Source: Bdellovibrionota bacterium
Lineage (GTDB): Bacteria; Bdellovibrionota_C; UBA2361; JAAYZI01
Length of the DNA: 64,000 nucleotides
Direction of reading: 5' to 3'
NCBI GenBank assembly: GCA_050950765.1
Contig: JBMNIF010000001.1
Coordinates: forward strand, 416,001 to 480,000
The notes beneath the pieces are model-generated. The model did no database searches. It had not been told where the DNA came from and was given only the letters and a program-made list of their open reading frames with translations. Below are positions 2,029 through 61,163 of this stretch, piece after piece; within the stretch, counting starts at the first letter, position 1, and every line of letters starts with the position of its first letter. A program made the position numbers and the translations under genes.

Positions 2029-2161
2029 GGACACCCAAACTAATCTTGAATCTTAATGGGACACCCAATAATTGCAAAGAGAGGAGCCAATTCAAAAGTG
2101 GGTGTCCTAATTATTTTAAGCAAAGATTGGGTGTCCTAGTTGTTTTTAAGATTGGGTGTCC
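2029..2161. repeat. Cluster of five REP-like GGGTGTCC motifs (2 reverse, 3 forward) upstream of the RAYT gene
   Basis: GGACACCC at 2029 and 2059; GGGTGTCC at 2100, 2129 and 2154. Confidence 0.85.
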
Positions 2162-2238
2162 TAGTTGTTTTTTAGGAAACTTTTAAATTTTTTAAGCGAC
2201 ATGACCTTCTGAAACTTTTAAATACAAGGAGGTTATTA

Positions 2239-3291
2239 ATGACCACAGCAAGAAAAGATATTATTATAGATGGTGTTGATGCAATTTATCATTGTACAAG
2301 TCGTTGTGTACGAAGAGCTTATCTGTGTGGTAAGGATTTTTTGACCAATGTCAGTTATGAACATAGAAAAGACTGGGTACGTGATAGGTTGATCTTTTTA
2401 TCCTCAATCTTCAGCATAGATATCCTTAATTATTCCATTATGGATAATCACCTGCATGTTCTCATTAAGACTAATTTCAGTAAGTTAAAAACGTTATCAG
2501 ATAGAGAGTTGGCTTACAGATGGAGAAAGCTTTATCCGAAAACTTTTAAGGGAAAGGATAAGCCTGCTACTCCGAGTGAAGAGGAGGTGACGTTGCTGGT
2601 TAATGATACTGTTATGATGCCCAAGATACGAGAACGTCTAGGGAGTGTTAGTTGGTTGATGAAGTCTTTAAGTGAGGATATTGCTAGAAAAGCAAATAAA
2701 GAAGATGAATGTACAGGACGTTTCTGGGAAGGTAGGTTTGGTTGTAAAAGGGTTTTAGATATCGGAGCTGTGTTAAAATGCGCTGTCTATGTAGATCTAA
2801 ATCCTATTCGTGCTGGGAAAGCGAAGACGCCTGAAGATAGCGAATTTACCAGTGTTCATGACAGAATAGAAAGTTCACTTGCTACAGAAAAATTAAAAAC
2901 AATAGGAATTAAGAGTAGGTTAACTAAAAGAGAGTTTAAAGTTCTAGAAGAAAAGGCAAATAAGAGTAGTTGGCTTGCCCCTATATTTAGTACTCCAGAT
3001 AAAAAAGGTTTATTACCTGTGGATTTTGATGACTATTTACAGATTTTGGAATGGACTGGAAAGCAGTTAGTTGAAGGGAAAAGGGGCTTTATTCCGTTAG
3101 ATTTAGTGCCCGTTTTAGAGAGATTAAAGTTAAATTTAGAGAATTGGACTGAAAGTGTAACAACTTTTGGGAAGGATTTTCACTTGGTAATAGGAAGTGA
3201 AAGCTCAATTAGAGCAATATCAGCAGAAAAGAATAAGAAGAAGTGTTTCCACGGCATAGCAGCGGCAAGAAAAACATTCTTTAATGGTTAA
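2239..3291 (+). CDS. REP-associated tyrosine transposase (RAYT)-like HUH/Y1 transposase, IS200/IS605 superfamily
   Basis: YHCTSRCVRR N-terminal motif, HUH motif MDNHLH, FWEGRF and catalytic-Tyr motif YVDLNPIRAG; AGGAGG RBS; no tnpB adjacent. Confidence 0.88.
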   Translation: MTTARKDIIIDGVDAIYHCTSRCVRRAYLCGKDFLTNVSYEHRKDWVRDRLIFLSSIFSIDILNYSIMDNHLHVLIKTNFSKLKTLSDRELAYRWRKLYPKTFKGKDKPATPSEEEVTLLVNDTVMMPKIRERLGSVSWLMKSLSEDIARKANKEDECTGRFWEGRFGCKRVLDIGAVLKCAVYVDLNPIRAGKAKTPEDSEFTSVHDRIESSLATEKLKTIGIKSRLTKREFKVLEEKANKSSWLAPIFSTPDKKGLLPVDFDDYLQILEWTGKQLVEGKRGFIPLDLVPVLERLKLNLENWTESVTTFGKDFHLVIGSESSIRAISAEKNKKKCFHGIAAARKTFFNG

Positions 3292-3453
3292 AATAAGGGA
3301 CATTAAGTAAAAAACACGCTCAAGCTTTCCTGCTAGACAGGAAAGATCTATCAAAAAGGTGATTTTTAGCGGCAAAAATCATTAATAAGAGAAAATTCTA
3401 GAAAAAATCGAGCAAAATTAATTGCTATAAAGCTAGATTTTAGCCTCTTCGCA

Positions 3454-3530
3454 GTAAGTTGGACACCCACCTTTAAGAGGGGCTGATAGGACGCTAAAAG
3501 TGGGTGTCCAACTTACGAAGGTGGGTGTCC
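3454..3530. repeat. REPIN-like inverted doublet of the GGGTGTCC motif plus one single copy
   Basis: GTAAGTTGGACACCCAC ... GTGGGTGTCCAACTTAC is a perfect 17-bp inverted repeat (3454-3516); extra GTGGGTGTCC at 3521. Confidence 0.85.
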
Positions 3531-3840
3531 TATTTGCTATTCTGGAGCAAAAAGCTAGAATTCGCTGAATCGAGGAGGGGGACTCTCTCCTTTGATCTTT
3601 TATAATTTATAGTGGGTATCAGTTAATTTAAGGATTTAACTAGGGTTAATATCTATACCAAAACGCTACCTATTTTATGAGTTGTCTTCTGTTTGTATGC
3701 AAAGTTCTATTACAAAAAGTACAGAGGCAACTGTTGATTAGCTAGTTTTTTTAACTAATCAATAGTTGTCTCCGTGGCTAAGAAATGGTCTTTGCTACTG
3801 ATAGAGATGACATTCATATTTCCTATAGAAGGAGAAAATC

Positions 3841-5157
3841 ATGAAAAAAATCTGTTGGGCGACTGTGGTCGTCCTTTTTGCAACCATCTGCATCCTTTTC
3901 GGGCAATCCTTTTCCGAAAAGAACCAACCTCTCCCCAAAAATCTTGAGGGAGAAACGGCGTCGGTTTCTAACGACGATGGTGACGTGGTTAAAAATGATC
4001 CTACTGCTATCCCTTACGAGGAATCTTCCTCCGAAAGGGGGCAACCTTCCTTCGAAAAAGTGTTGGTCTCGACTAGCGCCGCTTCCAGTGACGAGATCTG
4101 TGGTCCTCCTAGTGATGAAATCATTAGGGGGAGTTGGCAAGCTTTTGCAGCCAAGCTCAAAAGCAATAGTCAAGGGAACTGTGCACTCGATCTGCCGTCA
4201 TTTTGGCGGATGTTCGGATTTTTAGCACAGACAGCAGAAGGTGAGACCCGAGAAAGTTTTACTAACTTTTTGGGATTCGAGTGGACTCCAGCACACTCTG
4301 CTATTGTTCGTGAAATGGGCGGAAAGTCGAATGCACTGGTCGTCTCAAAATACGCCTTGTTGCCTCTTGCTAAAGAAGCTTGTAAAGGTCTTGGAATCGA
4401 GACGGAAGAAGGGAGACCCTTAACCTTTTCTGATATTTCGGCGTTAAATGCCGAACTCGAAGAGGAGACTGGGTTCCCTAGCGTTTTACAGTTGAAAGGA
4501 GACGAAACCGTCACAGGTTTTGCTACCAGCATAGTAGACGCCCCGTGGACAGAAAAGTTTAAGGCGGATCTCGACCGAGAATTTGAGACATCTTCGGGGA
4601 AAACGGCAAAACTTCCGTTCATCTTCGGATCTGTTGCGGCTAAGGAGACGATCTTTCCTGTTCATGGTTGGTTAGTTTTAATGAAGGAGGATTATTCTCT
4701 CTTCTTGTTTGAAACTACCAATCCTGCCGATGACGTCCTTTCTCTCAAAGATACTTTCCAATTTAAAGGGGAGTGGAAAAATGTCTGGCTTCATGTGCCG
4801 GAGATTTTGTTTGAGGACGAGACGGATTTTTTAAGTTTCGTCGATCTTTCGAAAGCTGCGGAGTTTGGTATGACATTGGAAGATGTCACGATGGGAGAGC
4901 TCGGGCAGAAGATAAAGGTGGTCCTTAACAGGACTGGATTCTATTCGGTAGCCGTGACTACGTTAAGGGCTATTTCGATAATTACTAGTCTTCTGCCAGA
5001 GGCCGAAGAGGATGTCTTTATTGACTCCTCCTTCATCGCTATTCTCTTCCATAAGAATCAACCCGTTGTTATCATCTTCGTTGATGATCCGACGTTGACA
5101 CAAAGCGGGGTGAAAAGTGGAGCACAAGATGTTCCAGTTCGAACCTCTGCGATTTAA
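3841..5157 (+). CDS. Secreted divergent serpin-like protein
   Basis: Signal peptide/TM; serpin-like blocks AQTAEGETRESF, PWTEKF, FETSSGKTAKLPFI, QKIKVVLNRTG and FIDSSFIAIL occur in serpin order. Confidence 0.6.
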   Translation: MKKICWATVVVLFATICILFGQSFSEKNQPLPKNLEGETASVSNDDGDVVKNDPTAIPYEESSSERGQPSFEKVLVSTSAASSDEICGPPSDEIIRGSWQAFAAKLKSNSQGNCALDLPSFWRMFGFLAQTAEGETRESFTNFLGFEWTPAHSAIVREMGGKSNALVVSKYALLPLAKEACKGLGIETEEGRPLTFSDISALNAELEEETGFPSVLQLKGDETVTGFATSIVDAPWTEKFKADLDREFETSSGKTAKLPFIFGSVAAKETIFPVHGWLVLMKEDYSLFLFETTNPADDVLSLKDTFQFKGEWKNVWLHVPEILFEDETDFLSFVDLSKAAEFGMTLEDVTMGELGQKIKVVLNRTGFYSVAVTTLRAISIITSLLPEAEEDVFIDSSFIAILFHKNQPVVIIFVDDPTLTQSGVKSGAQDVPVRTSAI

Positions 5158-5193
5158 GTTGATACGTCGACGAAATGAGATGAAATAGGCAAA

Positions 5194-5267
5194 ACTAGCT
5201 GCATCTCTAATCGTTTAAGCGGTTGAGGTGTGGCTCTAACCGTTTAAGTGGTTGAGGTGTAGCTAGT
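5194..5267. terminator. Hairpin between convergent genes, with an internal ~28-bp duplication
   Basis: ACTAGCTGCATCTC pairs with GAGGTGTAGCTAGT; CTCTAAYCGTTTAAGYGGTTGAGGTGT occurs twice. Confidence 0.5.
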
Positions 5268-5387
5268 GGGGTAGATATCTTTGTTTCTTAGGTTTTTTCG
5301 ATTGTCAAGAACTGATACCTACCTCCATTTTTCTTATTTTACGATAGTTTTCTTGCAAATCTGTTTATTTTTAAAAAGAAAATTACT

Positions 5388-5756
5388 TTAAAAAGTACAT
5401 TTTTCAGTCGAGATATGTTTACTAAATGTTTTTGCTTTGACAGTTCCTATGCCATGAACGATCTTTAAGGCTTCATATTTTTTAGCTTGTGGTAGGGTCT
5501 TCTCGTATTGAGCAATCTCTTGTTTCTTTTCCAATAAACGTTCTGCTAATTCATATGAGATGCCTGTAATAAGTTGCAATTCATATAAATCCGTTGAACA
5601 AAGATCTAACTTTTCTCCTTTAGCAAGGAGGGCTTCTCCGTTTTGTGGCGGATCTTTTTGAGCCACCTCCTTTTTTATAAAATAGTGGAACGGAATCTCT
5701 TTAACTAGCAAAAAAAATAGAATGAATACAGCAAAGCAGAGGTAACGGTGTGACAT
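5388..5756 (-). CDS. ComEA-like membrane-anchored helix-hairpin-helix DNA-binding protein
   Basis: N-terminal TM; LDLCSTDLYELQLITGISYELAERLL and IVHGIGTVKA HhH motifs. Confidence 0.75.
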   Translation of the reverse strand: MSHRYLCFAVFILFFLLVKEIPFHYFIKKEVAQKDPPQNGEALLAKGEKLDLCSTDLYELQLITGISYELAERLLEKKQEIAQYEKTLPQAKKYEALKIVHGIGTVKAKTFSKHISTEKCTF

Positions 5757-5876
5757 CTGACAAAATCCTTAATAACTAAAATATCCATACGAAGAATTGC
5801 TATCTATATTATATATCGGATTTTACCGTTAAGTCGTTGCGTGAAGAAAATGATTTTAATCAAAGGAAGTTGAAGG

Positions 5877-6045
5877 AAGTTGGACACCCACCTTTTGGGG
5901 AGGTGTGAATAGAACGCTAAAGGTGGGTGTCCGAATTGCAGCTAGGTATCTGAATTATTGTTAAAAGTGGGTGTCCAAATTACGGTTCTGGCAAGAGTGG
6001 GCGTCATAATGGGAGGATAAATTGTGGTTAAAGTGGGTGTCCTAG
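5877..6045. repeat. Second REPIN-like doublet plus single GGGTGTCC copies
   Basis: TTGGACACCCACC...GGTGGGTGTCCGAA (5880-5935) with a spacer homologous to the 3454 doublet; singles near 5968 and 6033, degenerate copy near 5997. Confidence 0.8.
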
Positions 6046-6053
6046 TTAGTGCT

Positions 6054-6353
6054 TTAAGCCACTACGTTAAGTGTTTTTGTGTTGCCGCCCTCTTTATTCT
6101 CAGCCTCACTGTCAGGTACCTCTTTTTGCGAAGCAAAAGAGCCTTCAGATCTAGCCTGTTCCCTTTTAATAGTGCGTTTTTCATCAGAAACAGAGACTTT
6201 CGATGAACGTTCTGCTGCGACCGTGCTAATTTGTGCTAATACGTGTCCTGAAACCTCTCCTTGAGAAAGACCATTTGCGGCGTGAGGTTGTTGCACCTGC
6301 TGATTTACCTGAGAGGCTGCAATGGAGATAGATGCTGAAATAGGAGAAGTCAT
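6054..6353 (-). CDS. Small low-complexity hypothetical protein ending LNVVA, probably in the flagellar sigma28 regulon
   Basis: GGAGG RBS; upstream sigma28-like promoter; Q/S/A-rich. Confidence 0.65.
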   Translation of the reverse strand: MTSPISASISIAASQVNQQVQQPHAANGLSQGEVSGHVLAQISTVAAERSSKVSVSDEKRTIKREQARSEGSFASQKEVPDSEAENKEGGNTKTLNVVA

Positions 6354-6447
6354 TTTGTATACACCTCCATGTTTTTTAGTTGTCTATAAGTGCTATAGAA
6401 CGGTAAATATCTCGAAATATCTCAACTTTTTTACTTATTAATTGATC

Positions 6448-6474
6448 GTATCGGTAATATGCGTGAAAACTTTA
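6448..6474 (-). promoter_or_regulatory. Sigma28 (FliA)-type promoter
   Basis: Minus strand reads TAAAGTTT-N11-ACCGATAC versus consensus TAAAGTTT-N11-GCCGATAA. Confidence 0.7.
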
Positions 6475-6825
6475 GCTTTTTCTTGCTATAAAATTATGAA
6501 ACCGTTTGCGCTTACAAAAAAGTAACATATTGTAAATATTGAGAGTATCTATTTATAGACTATAAGCAAACGTATTACGAGCAGAGTATAAACGTACTCA
6601 AAGAAGAAAATAGGCTGCTAAAGGAGGAGAGGTGGTAGTTAAGATTCGATCTGATTTCTGAATTTTTTACCTTGAAATCGGCTATCAATGAACTTAACGT
6701 TTTGAAATGTAAGGGAAAGTTTTAAAAAGATCATTAGAAAAAGTAGCTACGGCATAAATTGGAATTAAACTTTATCAACATTCTTATATAGTTATAGTAA
6801 ATGAGGAGCTTATCTCTGATGCCGT

Positions 6826-6982
6826 CGAAGTTTAAAATTTGACTAAAAGTGGGTGTCCTTTTTGAGATCGTGTTGAGAGTTTTGCAATTAAGGAGTTTGA
6901 ACCTTCACAAATACAATAATTTAATAATATCAAAGCATTGGCAGAAGTACAAAATTTAGCTAAAAGTGGGTGTCCTAAATAG
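6826..6982 (+). repeat. Motif-A-terminated repeat elements; left copy of a ~95-bp direct repeat
   Basis: GAAGTTTAAAATTTGACTAAAAGTGGGTGTCC (6827-6858) and AATTTAATAATATCAAAGCATTGGCAGAAGTACAAAATTTAGCTAAAAGTGGGTGTCC (~6918-6975). Confidence 0.75.
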
Positions 6983-7024: not shown

Positions 7025-7339
7025 ATGATCATAACTAATATTGAAAAGCTTTCGAATATGGAGATCATTGAACACTACGGAATAGTCTCAGGAAGCACAG
7101 TTCGTTCTAAAAATTTTCTTAAAGATTTCTTCGCAGGTATTAAAAATTTGTTTGGAGGAGAACTTAAGACATATACACACCTCCTTAACGAAAGCAGGAG
7201 GGAAGCTACTCTCAGAATGATAAAGCAGGCTGAGCAGTTGGGCGCAAATGCCGTTATAAATGTGAGGTTTGCAACTTCCTCGATCACTTCCGGAGCTTCT
7301 GAAATCTATGTTTATGGTACAGCTGTTAAGGTTCGATAA
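7025..7339 (+). CDS. YbjQ/UPF0145 family protein
   Basis: G-V-G...KDFFAGIKNLFGGELKTYTHLLNESRREA...A..LGANAVINVRF...YGTAV signature. Confidence 0.9.
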   Translation: MIITNIEKLSNMEIIEHYGIVSGSTVRSKNFLKDFFAGIKNLFGGELKTYTHLLNESRREATLRMIKQAEQLGANAVINVRFATSSITSGASEIYVYGTAVKVR

Positions 7340-7365
7340 AAATAAAATAATTAAAAGGAGTTTAA

Positions 7366-7818
7366 ATGGATTTTTACCTTCTTCTCTGTATCTGTCTGTT
7401 CATAGCGCTTGTTGTTGGAACCTTAATTGAAAAGTGGGATTATAGAAAAATTAGGAAAAGAGAAAAAGCGTTATTACCTCTTCCTGCTGTCACTTTCGAA
7501 GAAGATGTGCTGGAGGTGAGACCTATAAAAGATGCCAAACTTGTTACGGGCATCTCTGTTGTGGCAAGTGATTTTTTTAAAGTTTTTGTAGGTTTTCTCC
7601 TTTCAATATTAGGTGGAAGGCTCTCTACCTATGAGTCAATACTTGATCGAGCCAGAAGGAAGGCTTTGATAAAGATGAAAGAGCAGGCTGGCGATGCTGA
7701 TATTATCATTAACACTAGGCTTGAATCTGTGATGTTGTTTAATACTAAAGGTCGCAAAAGACCCATACCAAAAGTATCTGTCTTGGCTTATGGCACAGCC
7801 ATTACTTATGAAAAATAA
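7366..7818 (+). CDS. Membrane-anchored YbjQ family protein
   Basis: N-terminal TM; ILGGRLSTYESILDRARRKAL...AYGTAI. Confidence 0.85.
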   Translation: MDFYLLLCICLFIALVVGTLIEKWDYRKIRKREKALLPLPAVTFEEDVLEVRPIKDAKLVTGISVVASDFFKVFVGFLLSILGGRLSTYESILDRARRKALIKMKEQAGDADIIINTRLESVMLFNTKGRKRPIPKVSVLAYGTAITYEK

Positions 7819-7960: not shown

Positions 7961-8064
7961 CTTTACGATCAAGGGACTTAAACTTTAAAACTGAAACAAT
8001 TTAATAATATCAAGGCATTAGCAGAAGTTTAAAATTTGACTAAAAGTGGGTGTCCTAATTGAGG
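7961..8064 (+). repeat. Right copy of the ~95-bp motif-A-terminated direct repeat
   Basis: AATTTAATAATATCAAGGCATTAGCAGAAGTTTAAAATTTGACTAAAAGTGGGTGTCC closely matches ~6918-6975. Confidence 0.75.
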
Positions 8065-9194: not shown

Positions 9195-10002
9195 TATTGG
9201 TGCCACCCATCAGGGACAACAGAACGGGGTGCAACTGAAAAGCGGGATCGGCTAGGTCTGTACGAAGGTTAAAAAAATTGGTGCCACCCACCAGTAAAAA
9301 GTGGGTGTCCCAATTAGCATCTAATATTGTAAATAGGACATCCAAAATCTAAAATTATAACATCTAGTAATATCAAGACATTAGCAAAGCTTAGAATTTG
9401 GCAGTTCTGGTGCCACCCTTCAGCGTCGCAGACGTTCTGCACTGCAAATAGGACATCCAAAATCTAAAATCACAACATCTAATATTATCAATATGTTAGC
9501 AAAAATTAGTGTTCGGCAGTTTTGGTCCCACCCTTTAGGGACGGTTGAACCCACTAGGGACAGCCGAACGGGGTGCAACTAAAAAACAAATTGGCTAGGT
9601 CTCTACGGAGGTAAAAAGTGGGTGTCCTAATTGGCTTGGACGGCTAGATGCTGGTGCCACCCACCAGTGGCGGTACCCTTCGGTGACAATTGGACGGGCT
9701 GAAACTAAAAAGCAAGTCAGCTAGATTTCCACGGGGGTTAAAAATTTGGTGCCACCCTTCAGGGACGACAGAACGGGCTCAAACAGAAGAGTGGATCGGC
9801 TAGGTCTGTACGGAGGTTAAAAATTGGTGCCACCCACCAGTGGCGGTACCCTTCGGTGACAATTGGACGGGCTGATACCAAAAAATGAGTCAGCTAGATT
9901 TCTACGGGGGTAAAAGGTGGGTGTCCTATTTACGAGATGACGATTGAGCGGGTTGCAACTGCAGAGCAAGTCAGCTTGCGGGGGTAAAAAGTGGGTGTCC
10001 TT
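9195..10002. repeat. Mosaic REP-like array 1 (GGGTGGCACC on minus strand, GGGTGTCC mostly on plus strand)
   Basis: About 6-7 GGTGCCACCC and about 4 GTGGGTGTCC plus 2 GGACATCC, joined by recurring 60-90 bp modules shared with arrays 2 and 3. Confidence 0.85.
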
Positions 10003-17162: not shown

Positions 17163-18685
<1,523 letters not shown>

Positions 18686-19373
18686 TAAGGAGAGATGCGA
18701 AGATGTATTGACGAGAGTCGATGTATTTTTGCACGCCCTAAGATATGCAAGAGGTTCAATTTGTGAATGACGATGGAGTCAATTTACTCTGAAGTGTGAA
18801 TGAAGAGATCTCTTTGATCACCTGCTACGCGAGTTGGCACGAGAGTTTTTGTTTAGATGGTGAGAGTTACAGTTTCTATCGATATCCGTTAGGGGGTATA
18901 ACAATTAGGTAAGAGTAGAAGTGGTGATACTGCGTGTTGACCTTGTGGGAGTCGATGAGTCGGCTTTAGCGAGAGTTAACAACGAGGGCGAAAACACTAT
19001 CAAGGTATTTTTTCGACCTGATTCGGAATTTTTTCGAATAGTGCTTTAAGAAAAAAGTGCTTTAGGAAAAGTACATGATTTGGAGCTGTAAAAAGTTTTT
19101 CCAAGTCGGTATTTTTTCGACGGGTGCATAAGGAAAAAAGTACATAAGGAAAAAAATATCTGATAGAGTTTTTAAGAAATGTAAAAAAGTTAAATGTAAA
19201 CTAAATAATTGAAAGCCTGTTTATATGTTTTTTTAGAACGTATGAACGGAGAAAGATTTCATTGAACCAATAGTAGAGTTTTTGCCGTTAATTATTTAGC
19301 GGTGAAGATTATGAATTTTCTCGAGCGCGACGAGTTCAGAGTAATCTGGAATCGGAGCTCATAAGATATCTTA

Positions 19374-22492
<3,119 letters not shown>

Positions 22493-22956
22493 TTTTTCTT
22501 TTCTTTTTTTAATTTAATTTAAAGAGGGAAGAATGAGTAAGATAATATAATGAGCGAAGATTGGTATTATGACTGATGATACCGTGCTGTGTTAATGTTT
22601 CACCTTTTAGAGGTTGGAACGAGAGTAGCAAACGCAGTCACGTTATCAGCAGACATGTACTGCTAATCGCGTTCGAGAAAGTTTATAATGTAATGATGCT
22701 ATTGGTAATGTTATTACGAGATAGTTTATGAAAGATAGTTTATGAAATATTTTATAGGATAATTTATTTATAAGATAATTATAAGGTACGTTTCTTAAGA
22801 GAGAGTTTTTGTTTTTGTTAGCAGTATCACAACTTTTACCTTGTTGTTTATTATTAGGTTATTTAAGGGGCTAGTTAGTTAGAGGCTAATTAAGCTAGGT
22901 AGAAAGTCACTGCGAAAGTAAGTGCACAAACTAGATACATAGAGGTGTATTTACTT

Positions 22957-22992
22957 TCTTGGTGACTATAGTGGAGAGGCGTTCCCATCCCG
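22957..22992 (+). pseudogene. Truncated 5S rRNA 5' fragment within a duplicated leader
   Basis: TCTTGGTGACTATAGTGGAGAGG-CGTTCCCATCCCG equals the 5S 5' end with TTCCACC deleted; upstream AGAAAGTCACTGCGAAAGTAAGTGCACA is also duplicated. Confidence 0.8.
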
Positions 22993-23140
22993 CAGGTTGT
23001 CTGCTATGTCAACTTGGCAGAGCCAAGATTGACATGACGCGTAGGTGTTCGGGATGAGGTTTTGGTAGTTGGCAGGTTAGTTAAGAAAGTCACTGCGAAA
23101 GTAAGTGCACAGGATTTAATATGTAGGTGTGTGTTTACTT

Positions 23141-23251
23141 TCTTGGTGACTATAGTGGAGAGGTTCCACCCGTTCCCATCCCGAACACGGTCGTTAAGCT
23201 CTCCTACGCCGATGATACTGGAACTACCGGGAAAGTAGGAAATTGCCAAGA
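23141..23251 (+). rRNA. rrf: 5S rRNA
   Basis: CCCATCCCGAACAC, GTTAAGCT, GCCGATGATACT; terminal helix TCTTGGTGA/TTGCCAAGA. Confidence 0.95.
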
Positions 23252-23401: not shown

Positions 23402-24838
23402 ATGACATATCCAGATTGGGTTTTGAAAGAAAAAAAGAAAGGCACTGAAGTAGTTCACAGGAACGGCAAATATTATTTGTATAAAATAAGTTCTGTGTGG
23501 AATAAGGAAAAGGGGCGTGCTCAGAAGGTTACCTTAGAATACCTTGGCAGGATAACTGAAGATAAGGGTCTTATTCCCCCTAAACGTAGGGGTTCTTACA
23601 AAGATGGAGAAGTTTCTGCAAAGGAGTATGGAGCTAGCAAAACACTTTGTGAGTTAGGAAAAGACATATTAAATCGCTTAGAAGATAGGTTTCCGAATGA
23701 TTATCAAAAGATTTTTTCTATTGCTGCTTTAAGAGTAATTGAGCGTTGTCCGTTTAAGGGGATTGATTTTTTGTATGAGAAATCTTTTTTATCTGAACGC
23801 TTCGGAAAGCTTGCTCTATCTTCCTCTAGCATATCAAGGTTTTTAAGGGAGCTAGGTAGCCAGAGACCAAAGTTAGTTGGTTTTATGAAAGAGTATGTTT
23901 GCGATGTTGATTATCTTTTTTTTGATTTAACAAATATAATAAGCAAATCGGAAAATGTTGAAATAAATAGAGTTGGCTATAACAGTCATCATGATTTTGA
24001 TCCTCAAATTGGCTTAATGTATGCTTTTTCAGCGGATGACAGTTCTCCCACTTATTACAGGGTTATCCCTGGGAATATAAGAGATGTGAGGGCATTTAAG
24101 GGGAGTATAGAAGAGGCTGGTATAAAGGATGCTGTAATAGTTGCAGATAAAGGGTTTGGCTCACAAGAGAATTTTAAGTTATTAAAAGAAGCTAATTTAA
24201 AATATATTGTTCCATTAAGGCGCAATAATTCAAACATAAACAGAGAGATTTTAAGATGTGGAGACAAGTCTAAGTTTGAAAATTTTTTCTTTCATAATGC
24301 TCGTCCTATATGGCCTTACTCATATAAAATAAACGAAGATCGTCTTATTGTTTGTCTTGATGAATCGCTTAAGGCTAGAGAAGAGGCTGATTATCTGCGT
24401 AGAGTTCAAGAGAATATAGAAGGCTACACAAAAGAAGGTTTTATCGATAAACAATACCAATTCGGAACGATTACTTTTCAAACAAATCTCGATTTACCAT
24501 GCGACAAGGTATTTTGTTTATATAAGGCAAGAAATGAAATAGAGATGACATTCGATTTTTTAAAAAACCTATTAGAGCAAGATCGTGTATACTTGCAAGA
24601 TAAATATGCGATTGAAGCTTGGGCGTTCATAAACCATATTTCACTTATGCTTGTTTATTTGATATATCATAAACTTAAAGAAAGTGAACTTATTTCTAAA
24701 TATTCCATTCAAGAATTTATTACACATCTTAAATATATAAGTTATTTAAAAATCGGAGACTCGTGGGTAGTAAGTGAGATTTCAGGTAAAACACAAAAAA
24801 TTTTAGAAAAATTAAAAATTCATATTACGCAAACGTGA
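23402..24838 (+). mobile_element. IS1634/IS4-like DDE transposase; element ends not resolved
   Basis: FFDLT, VGYNSHHDFDPQI, PGNIRDV, IVADKGF, YKARNEIEMTFDFLK (YREK-like) motifs; AT-richer than neighbours. Confidence 0.85.
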
Positions 24839-25022
24839 AGAGTTAGGGATTGAGGATGCTGGTGCCACCCATCTTGTGGTGGTAGGGGGAATCTGGCAAA
24901 AGGGTGAATCTTGAGTGTTCTATAAAAGTTCGGAAGTTGGACGATCTTTTTATTTGCTAAAAGTAACTGCTACGCCTATCCTTTCCTTTCTCTCACCTGT
25001 AACGCTTACTTGAGTTTTGTTT

Positions 25023-25769: not shown

Positions 25770-27632
25770 CTGAAGGGTGATAGTAGAATCTAGCAATAGT
25801 TTGGGTGTCCTTTTTGGAGGGCAGGGGTATTTGCAAATTTTTAACCTCCGTTCAGAGAGCTAGCCGATTCACTCTTCTGTTTGAGCCCGTTCAAGCGTCC
25901 CTGAAGGGTGAAGTGATGGAAAAATGAAGGGTGGCACCAAATTTTTAACCCTCTAACCAACGTAAACTTTTGCTAATGTCTTGATATTATTAGCTAGTGC
26001 GGTTTTTAAAGTTTGGGTGTCCTTTTTGGGGTGATGGAAAAATGAAGGGTGGCACCAGTAAAAGTGGCGTTATTGAAGGGTGCACCAGTTTTTTGACCCT
26101 CGCTGCTTCTTACTGAAGGGCTGCTTCTTACTGGTGGGTGGCACCAATTTCTAACCACCCGTCCAAGCGTCATAGAAGGGTGGCACCAAATTCGTCAAAT
26201 TCTAGGCTTTGACTAACATCTTGATATTATTAGCTACTGCGGTTTTTAGAGTTTGGGTGTCCTTTTCTTTTTGGGTTGAAAGTGGCGTCCCTGAAGGGTG
26301 GCACCAAATTAGTCAAATTCTAGGTTTTGACTAACATCTTGATATTATTAGCTAGTGCGGTTTTTTAAGTTTGGGTGTCCTAGTTGTAGCCGTCTTGGGT
26401 GGCACCAGTAAAAGAGGGTGCCCTAATTGCAAACCGTTGAAGGGTGGCACCAAATTTTTAGCGATAGTTTAGGTGCCCTAATTGAGGTTTGCCTCTGAAG
26501 TGATGGAAAAATGAAGGGTGGCACCAAATTTTTAACCCTCTAACCAACGTAAACTTTTGCTAATGTCTTGATATTATTAGCTAGTGCGGTTTTTAGAGTT
26601 TGGGTGTCCTATTTGCAAAGCCTTTTATAACTAGTGGGTGGCACCAGTAAAAGTGGGTGTCCTAATTGAGGTTTATCCTTCGAAGTGATGGAAAAATGAA
26701 GGGTGGCACCAAATTTTTAACCCCCGTCCAGATCCAGCTGATCCCGTTTTTTAGTTGCAGCCAGTCTTTCAACCGGTGGGCAACCGTCCCTGAAGGGAAC
26801 CGTCCTTGAAGGGTGGCACCAAATTCTAACCCTCAACCGGTGGGCAACCGTCCCAATACCTCGCAGCTCTCGTGATTGGGAGCTCCAAATTCTAACCCTC
26901 AACCGGTGGGCAACCGTCCCTGAAGGGAACCGTCCTTGAAGGGTGGCACCAAATTCTAACCCTATTTGCAAATTTTTAATTTCCGTTCAGACCTAGCCGA
27001 TTCACTCTTATGTTTGAGCCCATCCAAGCGTCCCTGAAGGGTGGCACCAAATTAGTCAAATTCTAGGTTTTGACTAACATCTTGATATTATTAGCTAGTG
27101 CGGTTTTTTAAGTTTGGGTGTCCTAGTTGTAGCCGTCTTGGGTGGCACCAAATTTTTAACCTCCGTCCAAGTGTCCCTGAAGGGTGAAGTGATGGGAAAG
27201 TGAAGGGTGGCACCAAATTAGTCAAATTCTAGGTTTTGACTAACATCTTGATATTATTAGCTAGTGCGGTTTTTTAAGTTTGGGTGTCCTAGTTGTAGCC
27301 GTCTTGGGTGGCACCAGATTTTTAACCCCCGTCCAAGCGTCCCCGAAGGGTGAAGTGATGGGAAAGTGAAGGGTGGCACCAAATTCGTCAAATTCTAGGC
27401 TTTGACTAACATCTTGATATTATTAGCTACTGCGGTTTTTAAAGTTTGGGTGTCCTATTTGCAAAGCCTTTAAGGGTGGCACCAGATTTTTAACCCCAGT
27501 GAAAACTGTCCTGCTGAAGGGTGGCACCAGTAAAGGTGGGTGTCCTTTTTGGGGTGCCAGTAAAGGTGGGTGTCCTTTTTGGGGTGATGGAAAAATGAAG
27601 GGTGGCACCAGTAAAAGTGGGTGTCCTAATTG
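25770..27632 (+). repeat. Mosaic REP-like array 2; both motifs on plus strand
   Basis: About 20 GGGTGGCACC and about 12 GGGTGTCC; recurring module CTAACATCTTGATATTATTAGCTASTGCGGTTTTT..AGTTTGGGTGTCC; one ~110-bp unit is identical at ~26293, ~27036 and ~27202. Confidence 0.9.
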
Positions 27633-55293: not shown

Positions 55294-56451
55294 TTAATCA
55301 AGGGAAACAAATACAGCCTCCTCTTCTCCTTCAGTTAAAGCATCATACAGTCCGTCTATGGTCTTGCTTGAAGAAAAAACTGCTGTTGCTGTACGACCGG
55401 AAAGCACTCTTACGTGCGGTACCATCATATCAGCGCGCTCTTCAATAAAATCAGCCCATTTTTCACCTGCTTTTTCAACACCTTTACCTGCACCGTATTC
55501 CCACAACTCACCCTCAACAATTCTGCTAACTCCGTAAGCGCTGGAATAGGTATTAACCTGCGACTCTGATAACCCTTCGCCAACACCCTCGACCGTGCCA
55601 GCCAAGAGAGAGCCAGCCATAGCTCGTCCGATAGGATCAATTAAGATCCCCTCCATTCCGGATAAACCATCTTCGCCAACAACCCAACCATCAACAGGAA
55701 CTATTTTGCGCGCACCGTTAGGTAGGCTTATATTAAGGGTGTGTAAACGGAAAAGTGCTCTTTGATCGGTGAGAGAACCTTGAGCGGCGGCTAGTAGACG
55801 TGCATTCCCAAGGGGAAGTGTTGTTCCATCAGGTCCAATCACATCATCAATCAACTCCATAACGACGGGGTAGGGGGTGCCATCAACAGGGGCATGCACA
55901 CCAGCTAGTAACTTGACTTTAACAGAATCTCCTGTGCCGATGACTGCTAAGCGTTGCTCTTTCGGGGGAGCGGGGATCTCAACTTCTGAGTTTTCAAGCT
56001 CTCCAAAAGATTCTAACCCCTCTGGAACTTGTTCAATAATCTCTTCACCTTCAATATCAACAGGTTGCTCCTGTTTTATGCTGGCGTTAGTAACGGTGTT
56101 TTCAAGATCTGCCATTTTTTCAAGCATCCGCTTCATAATCGCAGCAGTTTGCTCTTCATTTCTCGCTATCTTTTCACTCATCTCTTGGAGATTTTGAGCG
56201 TTCTTTTGCGCTTCGCTCTGTGCCTTATCTATCTTCTGACCGTAAGCGATCATAAAGTCGTTACGAGTTTCTTCATTGGCAGTAGCACCTGTGTCAACTA
56301 TGATATCAGGCTCTACGTGAATCCTCTGTTTTTTTGCATCACCAAAGATGCCCCAAACTAAGAAAATTACGATTACACACGCTATAACTTGTGTTTTTCG
56401 ATCTTCTCTTAGTTTTAAAATTAGATCATCGATACTTTGTCTAAGAGCCAT
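55294..56451 (-). CDS. traB: TraB/VirB10-like T4SS core protein
   Basis: TM plus coiled coil plus LLAGVHAP...PVVMEL...GSLTDQRALFRLHTL...VDGWVVGEDGLSGMEG. Confidence 0.85.
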   Translation of the reverse strand: MALRQSIDDLILKLREDRKTQVIACVIVIFLVWGIFGDAKKQRIHVEPDIIVDTGATANEETRNDFMIAYGQKIDKAQSEAQKNAQNLQEMSEKIARNEEQTAAIMKRMLEKMADLENTVTNASIKQEQPVDIEGEEIIEQVPEGLESFGELENSEVEIPAPPKEQRLAVIGTGDSVKVKLLAGVHAPVDGTPYPVVMELIDDVIGPDGTTLPLGNARLLAAAQGSLTDQRALFRLHTLNISLPNGARKIVPVDGWVVGEDGLSGMEGILIDPIGRAMAGSLLAGTVEGVGEGLSESQVNTYSSAYGVSRIVEGELWEYGAGKGVEKAGEKWADFIEERADMMVPHVRVLSGRTATAVFSSSKTIDGLYDALTEGEEEAVFVSLD

Positions 56452-56471
56452 TTTACAACCTCCTACCTTGA

Positions 56472-57269
56472 TTACCTGTAACTTTTTGCTTTTGTGACCA
56501 CATAAACTTTAGTCTTATCTTTTCTGGCGACCTCTTGTTCTATCGTTAGTGGTCGTGGGGCTAGTTCCCACTTCTCAGCAGAGATGGCACGAGTTCCATC
56601 AAGTCTGAAAGTAGCGGGATTAAGTTTCTGACTCTGATCCAATAAATTTTCAGCATCGATAACGTAACCCCATAAATTAGGCCCAATAAAGATCTTGTCG
56701 ACAGTCGCTCTTATGGCACCATCGTGTAGAACCGATTCTCCTTTAAATCTGTTGCTGACTCTGTAACCAGGGATCCCCTTTTTCCCAAACTCAGCAACGA
56801 GGATCATCTCTCTAACAAAACCGCTCACTGTTGAAGAAGGAGCGTATTCAAATTTCCCCTCTTCGTAGTCTTTTAACTCTTCCTCTTCATTGATGGTATT
56901 ATCACGACGATCTTCAATCTTTATTACATCATCACGGGGGTTTTCTTGGTTTGCTAAACGTACCCTAATAGAATAAGAACGCCCATCGTCGAGTCTAACG
57001 ATGATGGCCTCTCCTTTTACGTTAAGACCTTCTGTGGCAAAAACTATTAAATCTGTATCTTTTCTATCGAGGTGCAGATTTGAAAGCTGCTTCTTATAGC
57101 CACCTTTGATAATGCCAGGGAATTGAATCTGCGTCGGCTCTCCAGGGGTAACGTTAATCGTTACCTCAGAATCACTATATTCTACGTCACGTGCTGAAGC
57201 TGTATTGACCAGCAAAAAGGCTCCAACTATACCGATTAAAAAGCCACTGGTTATTGTTGAATATTTCAT
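56472..57269 (-). CDS. traK: TraK/VirB9-like T4SS core protein
   Basis: Signal peptide; EPTQIQFP; C-terminal ENLL.QSQKLNPATF....AIS....ELAP...TKVYVV. Start placed at the ATG after GGAG (ORF track gives 57314). Confidence 0.78.
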   Translation of the reverse strand: MKYSTITSGFLIGIVGAFLLVNTASARDVEYSDSEVTINVTPGEPTQIQFPGIIKGGYKKQLSNLHLDRKDTDLIVFATEGLNVKGEAIIVRLDDGRSYSIRVRLANQENPRDDVIKIEDRRDNTINEEEELKDYEEGKFEYAPSSTVSGFVREMILVAEFGKKGIPGYRVSNRFKGESVLHDGAIRATVDKIFIGPNLWGYVIDAENLLDQSQKLNPATFRLDGTRAISAEKWELAPRPLTIEQEVARKDKTKVYVVTKAKSYR

Positions 57270-57291
57270 TGTCATCTCCACACTTTTATAA

Positions 57292-57964
57292 TTATTCAGG
57301 TGACCCTGTTTCAATGTTTACAATCATAATTCCATAATCGTTATACTTAACGTTTCTAGGGAATGTTTTCATTGTGATGTAATATTGCATAGTATCTGGG
57401 GGTAGTGGTTCTCCACCTATCGTTTTATGACGTTCCCCAACCGTCCTCATCTTTACAAGACCACTTTTTTCTTCTCTAGTAATGGTAGTTTTAGTCGGGT
57501 CTATATAATAAACTTGAGTTCTGCTAGTCTGTTTAATGGCTTCAAGATCTTTTCCTAAAACTTCCTCTTCAAACATACTTAATACAGGGGGCTCAAGCAT
57601 TTCAGCTGCGGCTAAAAACTGTTTTTCAGCTACGTAAGGTTGATAAGTGGCTACTAAATTGATGAATTGCTCTCCAACTGTTAAAAACTCACTATCTTGT
57701 ATTTCATCAGCAGAATAATGCCCAGGAAGTGGTCTAGCCGGTACATTTAAGTTTATTACTCTATTTGACCACATCGTGATGGCGAAGATTAGAGCGATAA
57801 CTGTGGCAGGGATCTGAAGGAGTGCCATAGCACGCCAAAGTAAAGCTTGCTCCCTATAATTTTCCCACAACCTAAGGGTGTCGTTATCTTTTTTTGATTC
57901 GCGAAATCGCGAATCATTGATCAACCTTTTTTGCCGCTTCTGTTATAGGTTTTTTGTCATTCAT
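57292..57964 (-). CDS. traE: TraE-like bitopic T4SS protein; 5' end apparently frameshifted in an A6 tract
   Basis: TM, then SEFL..GEQFINLVATYQPYVAEKQF; lies between the traL- and traK-like genes. RBS-bearing ATG at 57964 is out of frame with ORF 57292..57924. Confidence 0.65.
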
Positions 57965-58023
57965 CTAAAATCCTTATCTAAATCCTAATTATTACAAAAC
58001 ATCTTCCTGTTCCGTTACGCTCC

Positions 58024-58449
58024 TCAAAAGTAATACTTCTCCGCTTCACTGAACCTTGATTCATTGACAAAAACTTTATCCAATTGCAGTTGTAAATATT
58101 TGCAATCTTTTTTCACATCTTCCAGCTCTTGATAAGGAGCGCCGCTCCAAACCGGTTGCAACTTAGCTGGTGGTGGTATATCAACTGGTGTAAAGCCAAG
58201 AATCGACATCACATGATTTCTAAGACCACGTTCTTGGTCGGGATATATCTGGCGCAGTCTGGCTAATGTAATGGGAAATCCAACCAGAACTATAATGATA
58301 AGAGGCATATAACGTCCCCAATTATTTTTCGGAAGGAATAATTCAACAAATAACATTGCAAATATTAATCCTGAAGCCCACTCCATCGGTTTTGCACCGA
58401 AGAAGGTCCAATCTTCATTTAGTCTTGGAATAACCTGTCCATCATCCAT
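58024..58449 (-). CDS. traL: TraL/VirB3-like membrane protein
   Basis: IPRLNEDWTFFG...EW, two TMs, first position in the L-E-K-B-V-C order. Confidence 0.6.
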   Translation of the reverse strand: MDDGQVIPRLNEDWTFFGAKPMEWASGLIFAMLFVELFLPKNNWGRYMPLIIIVLVGFPITLARLRQIYPDQERGLRNHVMSILGFTPVDIPPPAKLQPVWSGAPYQELEDVKKDCKYLQLQLDKVFVNESRFSEAEKYYF

Positions 58450-58499
58450 ATCTAAGCTACGCCTAAAAAATAATTACCCTAAACAGTTATCTACAAACG

Positions 58500-59171
58500 T
58501 TATCTGATTGCTCCATTCAAAAGACGGGAATCAGGAGTATAGGTGGTTCCTGTTTCACTTTCTCTCGGTTTAGGAGCTAGAATTCTATTTAAGTCTTCTG
58601 CACGGTCTAAAATGCTGTTGCGCCAAGCACTTATATCCACAAGGATTTGAGGGTTGGCGAGACGAACACCTAAATCAAACTCTCTAACTGCTGTAAGTAG
58701 TAGATTCCTCGCCTGTGCATAATGTTTTATCCCGACCTTTAAGGTTTTCCCTTTTACCTCAGTGATGGGAGCGCCGATCTTTGTTAACTCTTTCGGCTTT
58801 AGGTATTCTTCATTGATAAAGCGTGGTGCTGCCACAAAATCAACTCCTTGTTGATTGGCTTGTGGTTGTGGATCTAAGATCCTTTCCAGATCTTCTGCAC
58901 GATCTAGTAAAGTGTTGCGCCATTGCTGAATATCTAAAAGTAGTTGTGGATCTACGAATTTCACGCCGAGATCAAACTCTTGGACGGCCTTTATAATAAA
59001 ATGTCTGGTACGTGCATAATGTCCGGAAGCAGCTGCCAATGACCTGACATCCGCACCTTCTTCCGAAACTTCTATAGGCTGGTTTTCTTCTTGAGCATTA
59101 ACAGGAAGAGAAAAAAAAGGTACGAATAAAAATGTAACGGCAACAACAACGCTCGATTTTAAAAAAACCAT
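58500..59171 (-). CDS. Secreted protein with a duplicated ~60-aa domain; first gene of the T4SS-like operon
   Basis: HYARTRHFIIKAVQEFDLG...WRNTLLDRAEDLERILDP versus HYAQARNLLLTAVREFDLG...WRNSILDRAEDLNRILAP. Confidence 0.8.
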   Translation of the reverse strand: MVFLKSSVVVAVTFLFVPFFSLPVNAQEENQPIEVSEEGADVRSLAAASGHYARTRHFIIKAVQEFDLGVKFVDPQLLLDIQQWRNTLLDRAEDLERILDPQPQANQQGVDFVAAPRFINEEYLKPKELTKIGAPITEVKGKTLKVGIKHYAQARNLLLTAVREFDLGVRLANPQILVDISAWRNSILDRAEDLNRILAPKPRESETGTTYTPDSRLLNGAIR

Positions 59172-59439
59172 TTTTATACCCTTAAACGAATTTAAAATTG
59201 TTACAACTAGCGGCTATTATTTATAATAACTGAGCGAATAAATTAACTTTTTACGGAAATAAAAAGAAATACCCCCAGTTTCACCATAATATCCGAGCCA
59301 TCTCTTATCTTGATCCACTTTTAAGGATCTATAATGCTAAATAAAACTATCTGCATAGACAGCTATCGACAGATTTAAGGTGAGAACTTTATGCTTTCTA
59401 TCGATAATTTGTTAGTTTTTGAAAAAGTAGAGGTTTTTC

Positions 59440-61163
59440 CTAGCCTTCCAATTAGGACACCCACTTTTAACCTCCGTGCAGATCTAACTAGTCCTGTCTT
59501 CAGTTGCAGCCCGTTCTGCTGTCCCTAGTGGGTGGTGGTAAATTCCCCCCGTCTAGATCTAGCTGACTCGTTTTGTAGCATCAGCCCGTTCGATCGTCCT
59601 TAGAGGGTGCTGCCTTTTACCTCCGTAAAAACCTAGCCAGTTCGTTTTGCAGTATAGCCTCCAATTAGGACACCCACTTTTACTGGTGGGTGGCACCAAA
59701 TTCCAAACCTTAAGATTTTTGCTAACATCCTGATATCATTGGTAGCCCTGAAGGGTGGCACCAAATTTTTAACCTTCGTCCAGATCTAACCTCCAATTAG
59801 GACACCCACCTTTTACCTCCGTCCAGATCTAGCCTTCCAATTAGGACACCCACCCTTAGCTGAAGGGTGGCACCAGATTTTTCCGTGCAGATCTAACTAG
59901 TCCTGTCTTCAGTTGCAGCCCGTTCTGCTGTCCCTAGTGGGTGGTGGTAAATTCCCCCCGTCTAGATCTAGCTGACTCGTTTTGTAGCATCAGCCCGTTC
60001 GATCGTCCTTAGAGGGTGCTGCCTTTTACCTCCGTAAAAACCTAGCCAGTTCGTTTTGCAGTATAGCCTCCAATTAGGACACCCACTTTTACTGGTGGGT
60101 GGCACCAAATTCCAAACCTTAAGATTTTTGCTAACATCCTGATATCATTGGTAGCCCTGAAGGGTGGCACCAAATTTTTAACGCCTTAAGATTTTTGCTA
60201 ACATCCTGATATCATTGGTAGCCCTGAAGGGTGGCACCAGATTTTTAACCTACGTCCAGATCTAGCCTTCCAATTAGGACACCCACCCTTAGCTGGTGGG
60301 TGGCACCAAAACTGCCAATCCAAATGCTAGCCAAACGAGCTGCAAATCTGAAGGGTGGCACCAAAACTGCCAATTCTGGGCTTTTGCTAACATCTTGATA
60401 TTGTTAGCTATTGTAGTTTTAGAGTTTGGGTGTCCTATTTGTGAAGCGTCCTTGCCTGCTGTCCGTTACTGAAGGGTGGCACCAGTGACAGCCCCAAACA
60501 AAGAAGGGTGGCACCAGATTTTTAACCGTGCAGATCTAACTAGTCCTGTCTTCAGTTGCAGCCCGTTCTGCTGTCCCTAGTGGGTGGTGGTAAATTCCCC
60601 CCGTCTAGATCTAGCTGACTCGTTTTGTAGCATCAGCCCGTTCGATCGTCCTTAGAGGGTGCTGCCTTTTACCTCCGTAAAAACCTAGCCAGTTCGTTTT
60701 GCAGTATAGCCTCCAATTAGGACACCCACTTTTACTGGTGGGTGGCACCAAATTCCAAACCTTAAGATTTTTGCTAACATCCTGATATCATTGGTAGCCC
60801 TGAAGGGTGGCACCAAATTTTTAACCTTCGTCCAGATCTAACCTCCAATTAGGACACCCACCCTTAGCTGAAGGGTGGCACCAGATTTTTAACCTCCTGC
60901 TGTCCGTTACTGGTGGGTGGCACCAAAACTGCCAATTCTGGGTTTTTGCTAACATCTTGATATTGTTAGCTATTGTAGTTTTAGAGTTTGGGTGTCCTAT
61001 TTGTGAAGCGTCCTTGCCTGCTGTCCGTTACTGAAGGGTGGCACCAGTGACAGCCCCAAACAAAGAAGGGTGGCACCAAATTTTTAACCTCCGTAGAAAC
61101 CTAACCGATCCGCTCTGCAGTTGCAGCCCGTTCTGCCGTCCCTGAAGGGTGGCACCAGATTTT
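59440..61163. repeat. Mosaic REP-like array 3 with three apparently identical ~300-bp blocks
   Basis: About 17 GGGTGGCACC (plus strand) and GGACACCC/GGGTGTCC copies; a block starting CCGTGCAGATCTAACTAG occurs at 59474, 59883 and 60526. Confidence 0.9.

Follow-up and report, generated by a model that had tools for sequence, protein, structure and literature searches.

Two HUH/Y1 transposase-like genes, each matched to a short end motif, and co-oriented intergenic repeat arrays with breakpoints at one of the motifs in a Bdellovibrionota genome

We examined a 64,000-nt stretch of a Bdellovibrionota genome (the window; C1:416001–480000 of genome G000, which comprises 2.64 Mb in 5 contigs with 40% G+C). 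The window carries two very short repeated motifs, A (GGGTGTCC) and B (GGGTGGCACC), and a gene for a HUH/Y1 tyrosine transposase-like protein, designated RAYT-A (RAYT, a tyrosine transposase associated with REPs, the repetitive extragenic palindromes). Two Y1 genes of this genome have a short end motif each: RAYT-A is paired with A, and a second gene, RAYT-B, with B. B is the repeating element of co-oriented intergenic arrays, and single B-to-B units have been exchanged between arrays with breakpoints at B. We favour, at a probability of about 0.6, a model in which cutting and joining by RAYT-B at B, together with local duplication, builds the arrays.

Two short motifs recur between genes across the genome

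An initial annotation of the window had described A and B as recurring many times, in part within three arrays, and proposed a genome-wide count as a check. Both motifs recur as described, with 41 copies of A (shuffle mean 0.82, maximum 3) and 44 copies of B (shuffle mean 0.02) in the window; counts here and below are of exact copies unless a mismatch is stated. The whole genome contains 221 A and 967 B, almost all of them intergenic, with about 30 A expected by chance from base composition (our arithmetic). Open reading frames (ORFs) of at least 200 amino acids make up 74% of the genome but contain only 17/967 B and 28/221 A. Clusters of A and B number 176 genome-wide (115 with at least two motifs), together covering 69 kb or 2.6% of the genome, and the 115 are distributed over all 5 contigs.

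The annotation had placed every noticed copy between genes. This holds in the window with respect to ORFs of at least 100 amino acids, apart from the three B motifs that end array 3, which fall within an ORF of 111 amino acids (61028–61363). That ORF has no Pfam match, overlaps the response-regulator ORF next door and is taken to be spurious. Both motifs have a longer conserved context (AAAAGTGGGTGTCCTAATTGG around A, CTGAAGGGTGGCACCAAATTTTT around B), and B is a 9-bp odd palindrome, GGTG-G-CACC. As had been pointed out, the motifs are far shorter than REPs.

The enzyme gene of the window, the A clusters that flank it and the three arrays are as follows. The arrays lie where the annotation had located them, with B co-oriented within each.

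RAYT-A: 2239–3291, plus strand; gene for a 350-amino-acid HUH/Y1 tyrosine transposase-like protein, long, subclass-2.3-like and TIRYT-like (see below)
Upstream A cluster of RAYT-A: 2029–2161; A at 2029(−), 2059(−), 2100(+), 2129(+) and 2154(+)
Downstream A cluster of RAYT-A: 3461–3530; A at 3461(−), 3502(+) and 3523(+)
Array 1: 9199–10000, minus strand; 6 B (all minus) and 4 A (plus), flanked by genes for an M48 peptidase and an ABC ATPase
Array 2: 25803–27626, plus strand; 20 B and 12 A, every copy plus, flanked by queH and flgK
Array 3: 59455–61156, plus strand; 17 B (all plus) and 10 A (8 minus, 2 plus)

RAYT-A is matched to motif A

Judged by its sequence motifs and predicted fold, RAYT-A is an intact HUH/Y1 enzyme belonging to a very large, cross-phylum family of Y1 proteins of ~350 amino acids. 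The HUH motif (N70-H71-x-H73) and the Tyr helix (Y184-x-x-L-N-P-x-R) are invariant in an alignment of 30 homologues. Homologues number more than 6,400 at E ≤1e-5, many of them named RayT by one source and some with PF01797. RAYT-A itself scores below the curated cut-offs of both Pfam Y1_Tnp (PF01797; 18.8 bits, cut-off 23) and NCBIfam REP_Tyr_transpos (31.9 bits, cut-off 80). Searches of PDB sequences with phmmer or with a 30-sequence profile gave no Y1 match; only the fold search gave one. The AlphaFold (AF2) model has a predicted local distance difference test score (pLDDT) of 89.3 and a predicted template modeling score (pTM) of 0.90, and its top Foldseek match in the PDB is 4ER8, TnpAREP of E. 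coli (E 8e-4, TM-score on target 0.61), with the ISDra2, IS608 and IS200 transposases next.

The gene is single-copy in this genome, with several copies in some relatives, and is flanked on both sides by A in inverted orientation. The sequence within 25 kb of RAYT-A, 1.9% of the genome, contains 14/120 A clusters and 57/221 A motifs. Part of this local excess consists of three mostly-A clusters of 8, 8 and 12 motifs, in both orientations, that lie 5–14 kb upstream of RAYT-A (C1:404298–413617).

A RAYT-A homologue is present in 14/40 relatives. At nine orthologue loci from other genera or families of the same order (40–51% identity), exact A lies near the gene in seven, reading GGACACCC where it is upstream and GGGTGTCC where it is downstream. 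Scanning named genomes gave a cross-phylum set of 80 loci with 34–44% identity to RAYT-A, which belong to Planctomycetota, Verrucomicrobiota, Bdellovibrionota and many Gammaproteobacteria. Exact A is present in 33 of these 80 loci (90 copies, compared with 4 for the reversed control). When up to one mismatch is allowed, GGACACCC is found between positions −160 and −20 at 60/80 loci, compared with 5, 5 and 1 of 80 for three control patterns, and GGGTGTCC is found downstream at 56/70 loci, compared with 10, 7 and 4 for controls. The family-wide upstream end motif is aGGACACCCA, at a median of 89 nt before the start codon. For two copies of the family in one Pirellulaceae genome, homology runs exactly from CAGGGACACCCA to TGGGTGTCCCT, and the unit is a ~1.35-kb element with 12–13-bp inverted ends. 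Genes of the RAYT-A family are bounded by the inverted pair aGGACACCCA ... TGGGTGTCC, which is motif A. The annotation had read ORF 2239–3291 as a RAYT tied to A and looked to its orthologues for the same flanks; most loci do keep them (7/9 of the orthologue loci; upstream, 60/80 of the cross-phylum set).

The orthologue of the nearest relative (L030, G001:C145) is flanked by seven upstream and three downstream A that lie inside a longer repeat, GAAATGCCGGACACCCAAA, words of which occur 13–14 times in the locus.

RAYT-B is matched to motif B

Only A flanks RAYT-A in the window, and the annotation had predicted a second enzyme for B elsewhere in the genome. A PF01797 search found it: a second Y1 gene family scores above the cut-off at six places, all outside the window. 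RAYT-B has 322 amino acids and is present in six copies and one fragment; five of the copies are identical and the sixth is at 99%. It scores 29.8–32.5 bits against Y1_Tnp (cut-off 23), its translation contains the HUH motif NHFH, and it matches TnpAREP (4ER8) with an E of 5e-5 around the Tyr helix, where YIYINP aligns with the TnpAREP Tyr helix.

Alignment of the six RAYT-B loci delineates a common ~1.4-kb unit whose left end is an inverted B doublet (CTGGTGCCACCC, ~35 nt, GGGTGGCACC) and whose right end is GTACTGGTGGGTGGCACCAG. Each copy is bounded by inverted B (CTGGTGCCACCC ... GGGTGGCACCAG), as the prediction implied, and no A motif lies within the six units. To the left of the units, B modules differ in number and order between copies. 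The sequence within 25 kb of the RAYT-B copies, 10.1% of the genome, contains 50/143 B clusters. The cross pairs behave differently: A shows no enrichment near RAYT-B (14/120 clusters, compared with 10.1% of the genome), and B near RAYT-A is enriched about twofold (6/143 clusters or 4.2%, compared with 1.9% of the genome).

The RAYT-B fragment (residues 246–322, 84% identity) sits between two right-end copies at G000 C2:8664–9320. The Pirellulaceae RAYT-A-family element (L051) has three right ends, each with a gene-3′ copy (2438–3200), and a tandem run of ~10 CCTTTATTGAC-like units (3180–3300) directly after the right end motif. In these two unrelated cases the 3′ part of a Y1 gene is tandemly duplicated together with its right end motif, a pattern that may have been left by one-ended or re-initiated copying there.

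Single units have been exchanged between arrays at B

Arrays are strongly polar. In clusters of at least three B, 895/915 B motifs (98%) share the majority orientation of their cluster, and neighbouring motifs form 682 co-oriented B-B pairs compared with inverted doublets numbering 16 (B) and 8 (A). B-to-B units of up to 400 nt number 808, with 710 distinct sequences. Unit length ranges from 20 to more than 300 nt, with peaks at ~32, 43, 53, 65, 79 and 88 nt, and a typical module between B motifs has ~20–110 nt. Both modules quoted in the annotation are real families: the largest family is a 79-nt module with 178 units in 69 arrays, and a B...A family of ~101–111 nt comprises 28 units, 15 of them with exact A in the same orientation as B. 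The module library is larger than the small one described there, since the 728 units of at least 40 nt fall into 234 similarity groups, including 167 singletons, and the 12 largest groups hold 423 units.

Much of the growth of arrays is local duplication. Mean unit identity is 92.8% for pairs from the same array and 80.7% for pairs from different arrays, and the best match of a unit lies in its own array for 294/561 units, where ~121 would be expected. Array 2 contains a higher-order repeat of ~166 nt, at 27039, 27205 and 27371.

Alongside local duplication, single units have been exchanged between arrays with breakpoints at B. Among 92 module pairs from different arrays with at least 97% identity, both neighbours are unrelated in 47. 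Where the neighbours differ, identity on the upstream side ends exactly at the B of the unit itself (0 nt) in 40/82 cases and within 5 nt of it in 71/82; on the right side, identity ends within 3 nt past the next B in 55/88. The classes of sequence flanking B on the left (GAA, GGT) and right (AA, AG) occur in combinations of 308, 204, 138 and 79, as under independence (chi-square ~0.75, our arithmetic). The suggestion that modules are joined at the motifs is in this way borne out for B, where identity stops.

The A copies in B arrays are mostly passengers inside modules. Directly before an opposite-orientation B sit 115 A, 68 of which, with a 10–14-nt spacer, belong to a fixed unit made up in order of GGACACCC, ACTTTT(T)ACTGGT (or a variant) and GGGTGGCACC. 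Pairing between the shared CACCC/GGGTG cores of this unit is possible (−7.8 kcal/mol). The annotation had proposed that two motif classes cooperate in building the arrays. What we find are essentially B arrays, in which A lies mostly inside B-to-B modules, and no evidence that cooperation is needed.

An array usually ends in one further module and a B that is partial or degenerate. Bare GGGTG was considered as an IS608-style target, with modules starting GCACC/TCC, and was rejected: array ends often consist of a degenerate full B followed by AAATT and do not fall cleanly after GGGTG. For 87 arrays with classified settings, 38 lie between convergent, 39 between co-directional and 10 between divergent genes, so gene 3′ ends are favoured. 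Where the genes are co-directional, B runs against them in 22/31 cases and with them in 9/31.

Array 2 recurs in independent samples

Public runs with the locus are anaerobic-digester and bioreactor metagenomes, and no RNA data set is listed among them. Contigs of four independent runs, from four studies, contain internal junction pieces of array 2 (117–147 nt) with 0 differences; examples are given in the next line.

Array 2 junction pieces: 25922–26043, 26379–26525, 26934–27057 and 27412–27545

Array 2 is real and, at the sampled junctions, stable. The annotation had named long-read disproof of the arrays as a reason to abandon them, and it is true that the genome is a metagenome-assembled one from an uncultured organism and that short-read contigs of the public runs break inside arrays. 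The exact junction pieces from four studies, the spread of the 115 clusters over all contigs and the related motif clusters beside orthologous genes in other assemblies nevertheless leave assembly artefact as an explanation that we regard as scarcely credible.

Motifs and enzymes in related genomes

B is expanded in this genome (967; control 2) and moderately so in G019 (51; control 3), which is 92% complete and comes from a different family within the order; none of the remaining 19 genomes of the order exceeds 18. In G019 (L124, L125) the 51 exact B are grouped in small arrays that are co-oriented and have other flanks, such as AAAACAGGGTGGCACC. The nearest available genome is of a different genus, which precluded a comparison of orthologous arrays.

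Homologues of RAYT-B with up to 34% identity occur in 36/40 relatives, usually in multiple copies. Some of these distant homologues have flank repeats of their own, CCCACGAACTGGTGCC ~11 times in L035 (G015:C30) and AGGCCCCCTCCAG ~5 times in L034 (G030:C232), which suggests many enzyme-motif pairs in this order.

Relation to known repeat systems and Y1 proteins

B has little capacity to form a hairpin. Being an odd palindrome, it does not fold by itself; its commonest context gives −0.7 kcal/mol, and only 79/967 copies have flanks for a 6–7-bp hairpin. Alignment folding of the 79-nt module (alifold with DNA parameters, 153 distinct copies, both strands) gave no conserved internal pairing, only pairing of the flanking B with B. 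Neither the A nor the B consensus carries a GTAG or CGTC tag.

Several known repeat classes were compared and set aside. A and B lack the hairpin with GTAG/CGTC tag that marks a REP. The annotation had seen a likeness to the spread of REPINs (REP doublets forming hairpins) and bacterial interspersed mosaic elements (BIMEs). The inverted doublet that is the unit of a REPIN is rare here (16 and 8, compared with the 682 co-oriented pairs), the alternating orientation of a BIME is replaced by a shared one (895/915), and there is no REP hairpin, so the TIRYT/TIRtron type described below fits better. IS200/IS605 elements were rejected on the lack of subterminal hairpins and of a lagging-strand bias, and a CRISPR array on the unit length of 20 to more than 300 nt and on "spacers" that belong to recurrent families. 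A structured RNA was rejected as well: no Rfam family besides the rRNAs matches the window, and the 79-nt module has no conserved structure.

The closest published description we found is that of Y1 genes flanked by terminal inverted repeats (TIRs) rather than REPs, named TIRYT/TIRtron (Di Nocera, De Gregorio and Rocco, 2013; PMC3733652). According to the text of that paper available to us, many TIRs share GGGGWSAS, and some families are moderately abundant, as dimers or clusters. Both enzymes here resemble this arrangement, a Y1 gene with short non-hairpin TIRs at a fairly constant distance, and here too members of the TIR families recur through the genome singly, as dimers and in clusters (PMC3733652, as available). 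In our own comparison with the quoted consensus, CAGGGACACCCA of the Pirellulaceae element agrees at 7/8 positions and aGGACACCCA at 6/8; B does not fit. The present system differs from the published one, to the extent that the available text describes it, in its 967 B, kilobase co-oriented arrays, interchangeable modules and share of 2.6% of the genome (PMC3733652).

RAYT-A resembles subclass 2.3 of Quentin, Siguier, Chandler and Fichant (2018; PMC6006769), an assignment made by comparing motifs with the table of that paper. In the accessible portion of the paper, this subclass is characterised by a median of 325 amino acids, W-E, YVDLNP, a 55-amino-acid insertion and a long two-part tail, and it occurs in several copies per genome in Alteromonadales and Chromatiales hosts, described there as lacking REP-like flanks (PMC6006769). 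RAYT-A shares, on the published features accessible to us, the length (350 amino acids), W-E, YVDLNP, an insertion of ~50 amino acids between the HUH strand and the next helix, and a long C-terminal tail; its family is multi-copy in some genomes and has many Alteromonadales homologues. It differs from the subclass as tabulated in that portion in an HUH motif that is mostly NHLH rather than NHYH, and in the conserved inverted end motif of 9–10 nt found upstream at 60/80 loci.

For REP/RAYT systems, or REPtrons, we compared the accessible text of Nunvar 2010 (PMC2817692), Bertels and Rainey 2011 (PMC3116915) and Ton-Hoang 2012 (PMC3333891). The likenesses that this text supports are an HUH/Y1 gene flanked by its own inverted intergenic repeat, hundreds of repeat copies, several enzyme-repeat pairs per genome, a preference for gene 3′ ends and mosaic clusters. 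The differences from REPs, REPINs and BIMEs as described there are the absence of a hairpin and tag, the rarity of inverted doublets, the co-oriented motifs and the multi-copy RAYT-B. Compared with the single-copy REPtron gene, RAYT-A is single here and RAYT-B is present in six copies at 99–100% plus a fragment. IS200/IS605 elements (IS608, ISDra2) share the catalytic fold with RAYT-A, and the reaction proposed below is modelled on theirs; the present system differs in having no subterminal hairpins, no tnpB, inverted end motifs and no lagging-strand bias. Integron cassette arrays offer a functional analogy, in that one short site bounds the units, the units have one orientation and they are shuffled between arrays. 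There the enzyme is the tyrosine recombinase IntI rather than an HUH/Y1 protein, and here the units are non-coding, of 20–110 nt, in more than 100 arrays per genome.

We file the system as one that works like RAYT/REP and belongs to the TIR-associated Y1 type, and not as a member of the REPs, REPINs or BIMEs. The literature searched did not yield the scale of expansion, co-oriented cassette-like arrays, breakpoints at B or the cross-phylum end motif. Among the matches listed, the RAYT/REPIN literature made no mention of Bdellovibrio, the only papers to use the name TIRYT were PMC3733652 and PMC6006769, and matches to the motif strings were unrelated uses such as primers.

Possible origin of the arrays

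In the model that we favour, RAYT-B would make a single-strand cut at a fixed position within B and rejoin that strand to another cut B. Any B-to-B unit could then be excised, copied or inserted at another B in one orientation, like a cassette, and local re-insertion or slippage would duplicate units within an array. Both motifs have spread into intergenic DNA, B massively and as co-oriented arrays. That the enzyme catalyses the exchange, where it cuts and whether its substrate is single-stranded, we infer from association only.

One alternative is that host processes alone (slippage, unequal crossing-over, gene conversion) shape the arrays, and that Y1 elements, which would merely favour A or B for insertion or have them as their ends, seeded the repeats but did not move the modules. 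It would account for the excess of best matches within the same array (294/561) and the higher identity there (92.8% compared with 80.7%), for the ~166-nt higher-order repeat of array 2, for junctions identical over four samples, for the ~19% divergence between arrays and for B mini-arrays in G019, where a Y1 gene was not detected. Harder to reconcile with it are near-identical single modules found in arrays far apart, next to unrelated neighbours, whose shared identity stops inside the 10-nt motif on both sides; a RecA-type double crossover in two 10-bp identities is unlikely, which counts against host processes as the sole agent. The left and right flanks of B also combine independently, and each motif clusters more around its own gene than around the other gene. 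We therefore consider host processes alone an unlikely, if serious, explanation. We give still less credence to the idea that B, and perhaps A, is a host protein binding site or a functional RNA or DNA signal (nucleoid, termination, insulation) maintained by selection, with the Y1 genes no more than its historical source. BIMEs, which bind IHF (integration host factor) and gyrase, would be the model for such a role. B is exact while the modules diverge (710 distinct among 808 units), although this exactness is partly circular, exact copies alone having been counted; GGTG-G-CACC is an odd palindrome as expected for a dimeric protein binding double-stranded DNA; gene 3′ ends are favoured (38 convergent, 39 co-directional, 10 divergent); and G019, where no Y1 gene was found, is enriched in the same 10-mer with flanks of its own. 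The arrays, however, show no Rfam match and no conserved structure, they face either way with respect to genes (22 opposite, 9 same), and B is enriched in just 2/21 genomes of the order, unlike what a conserved host factor would produce. Such a signal is in our view improbable.

Several observations weigh against cutting and joining by RAYT-B. No close orthologue of RAYT-B was found, identities among 40 relatives reaching at most 34% and a metagenome scan giving two matches only, at 23–25%, so the pairing of B with its enzyme rests on one genome. In G019, queries with RAYT-A, RAYT-B and PF01797 found no Y1 gene; either the gene was lost or was not assembled, or B arrays persist or form without it. 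Single-strand transposition of the IS608/ISDra2 type is biased with respect to the replication strand, and the arrays show no strand bias relative to GC skew (50 compared with 40 arrays, p = 0.34). All biochemically studied Y1 enzymes that we know of recognise hairpins, and B and the 79-nt module have no conserved hairpin. Modules of different arrays are only ~81% identical, which makes most dispersal old. The contigs of the four runs contain no interpretable excision joints, and none of them spans array 2; the joints present have short sides (20–26 nt) that come from look-alike modules elsewhere and are uninformative on excision or rearrangement. Exact-match counting of A and B, finally, misses degenerate copies.

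A wider reading combines the arrays with the cross-phylum family: B-to-B units would be true cassettes of an active, integron-like system run by an HUH/Y1 enzyme that cuts and rejoins DNA at a 10-nt site with no hairpin, and aGGACACCCA ... TGGGTGTCC would define TIR-bounded long Y1 elements of subclass 2.3 across phyla. On this wider reading, the six near-identical copies of RAYT-B point to a cassette system still active in the lineage, and the fixed unit of inverted A and B (68 copies), with its pairing CACCC/GGGTG cores, could reflect cross-talk of the two enzymes. We advance this reading tentatively, at odds somewhat short of even.

To our knowledge there is nothing experimental on the action of TIRYTs or of subclasses 2.1 and 2.3, and knowledge of mechanism comes entirely from the hairpin enzymes IS608, ISDra2 and E. 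coli TnpAREP. For these long TIR-associated Y1 proteins, the genome offers two enzyme-site pairs with very short defined sites. It contains ~1,000 natural substrates, and the prediction is cleavage and strand transfer inside GGGTGGCACC. For a family in which more than 6,400 homologues were detected, the cross-phylum A end motif provides a recognition sequence that can be tested directly. Should the cassette model be true, the system would represent a new way of building and shuffling kilobases of bacterial intergenic DNA, and its enzyme a compact sequence-specific means of cutting and joining DNA.

Other features of the window

The remaining A and B copies of the window lie in four places.

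A cluster: 5882–6042; A at 5882(−), 5925(+), 5969(+) and 6035(+)
Two co-oriented A (6851 and 6968): 6851–6975, plus strand; upstream of a YbjQ gene pair
Solitary A: 8048–8055, plus strand; with a conserved segment upstream
Solitary B: 24861–24870, minus strand; between an IS1634-family transposase gene and queH

The co-oriented A at 6968 and 8048 bracket the adjacent YbjQ-family genes (104 and 150 amino acids; 7025–7818), and the same ~50-nt AT-rich segment precedes both. The IS1634-family DDE transposase gene (23402–24838, NCBIfam 195 bits) has the 5S rRNA gene on one side and queH on the other, and the B at 24861 follows just after it. The rRNA operon (17165–23251) contains no A or B, and its spacer is without a tRNA gene, as is the window throughout. 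The 23S match has 3,124 nt against a model of 2,925 positions, and the ~200 extra bases are possibly an intervening sequence.

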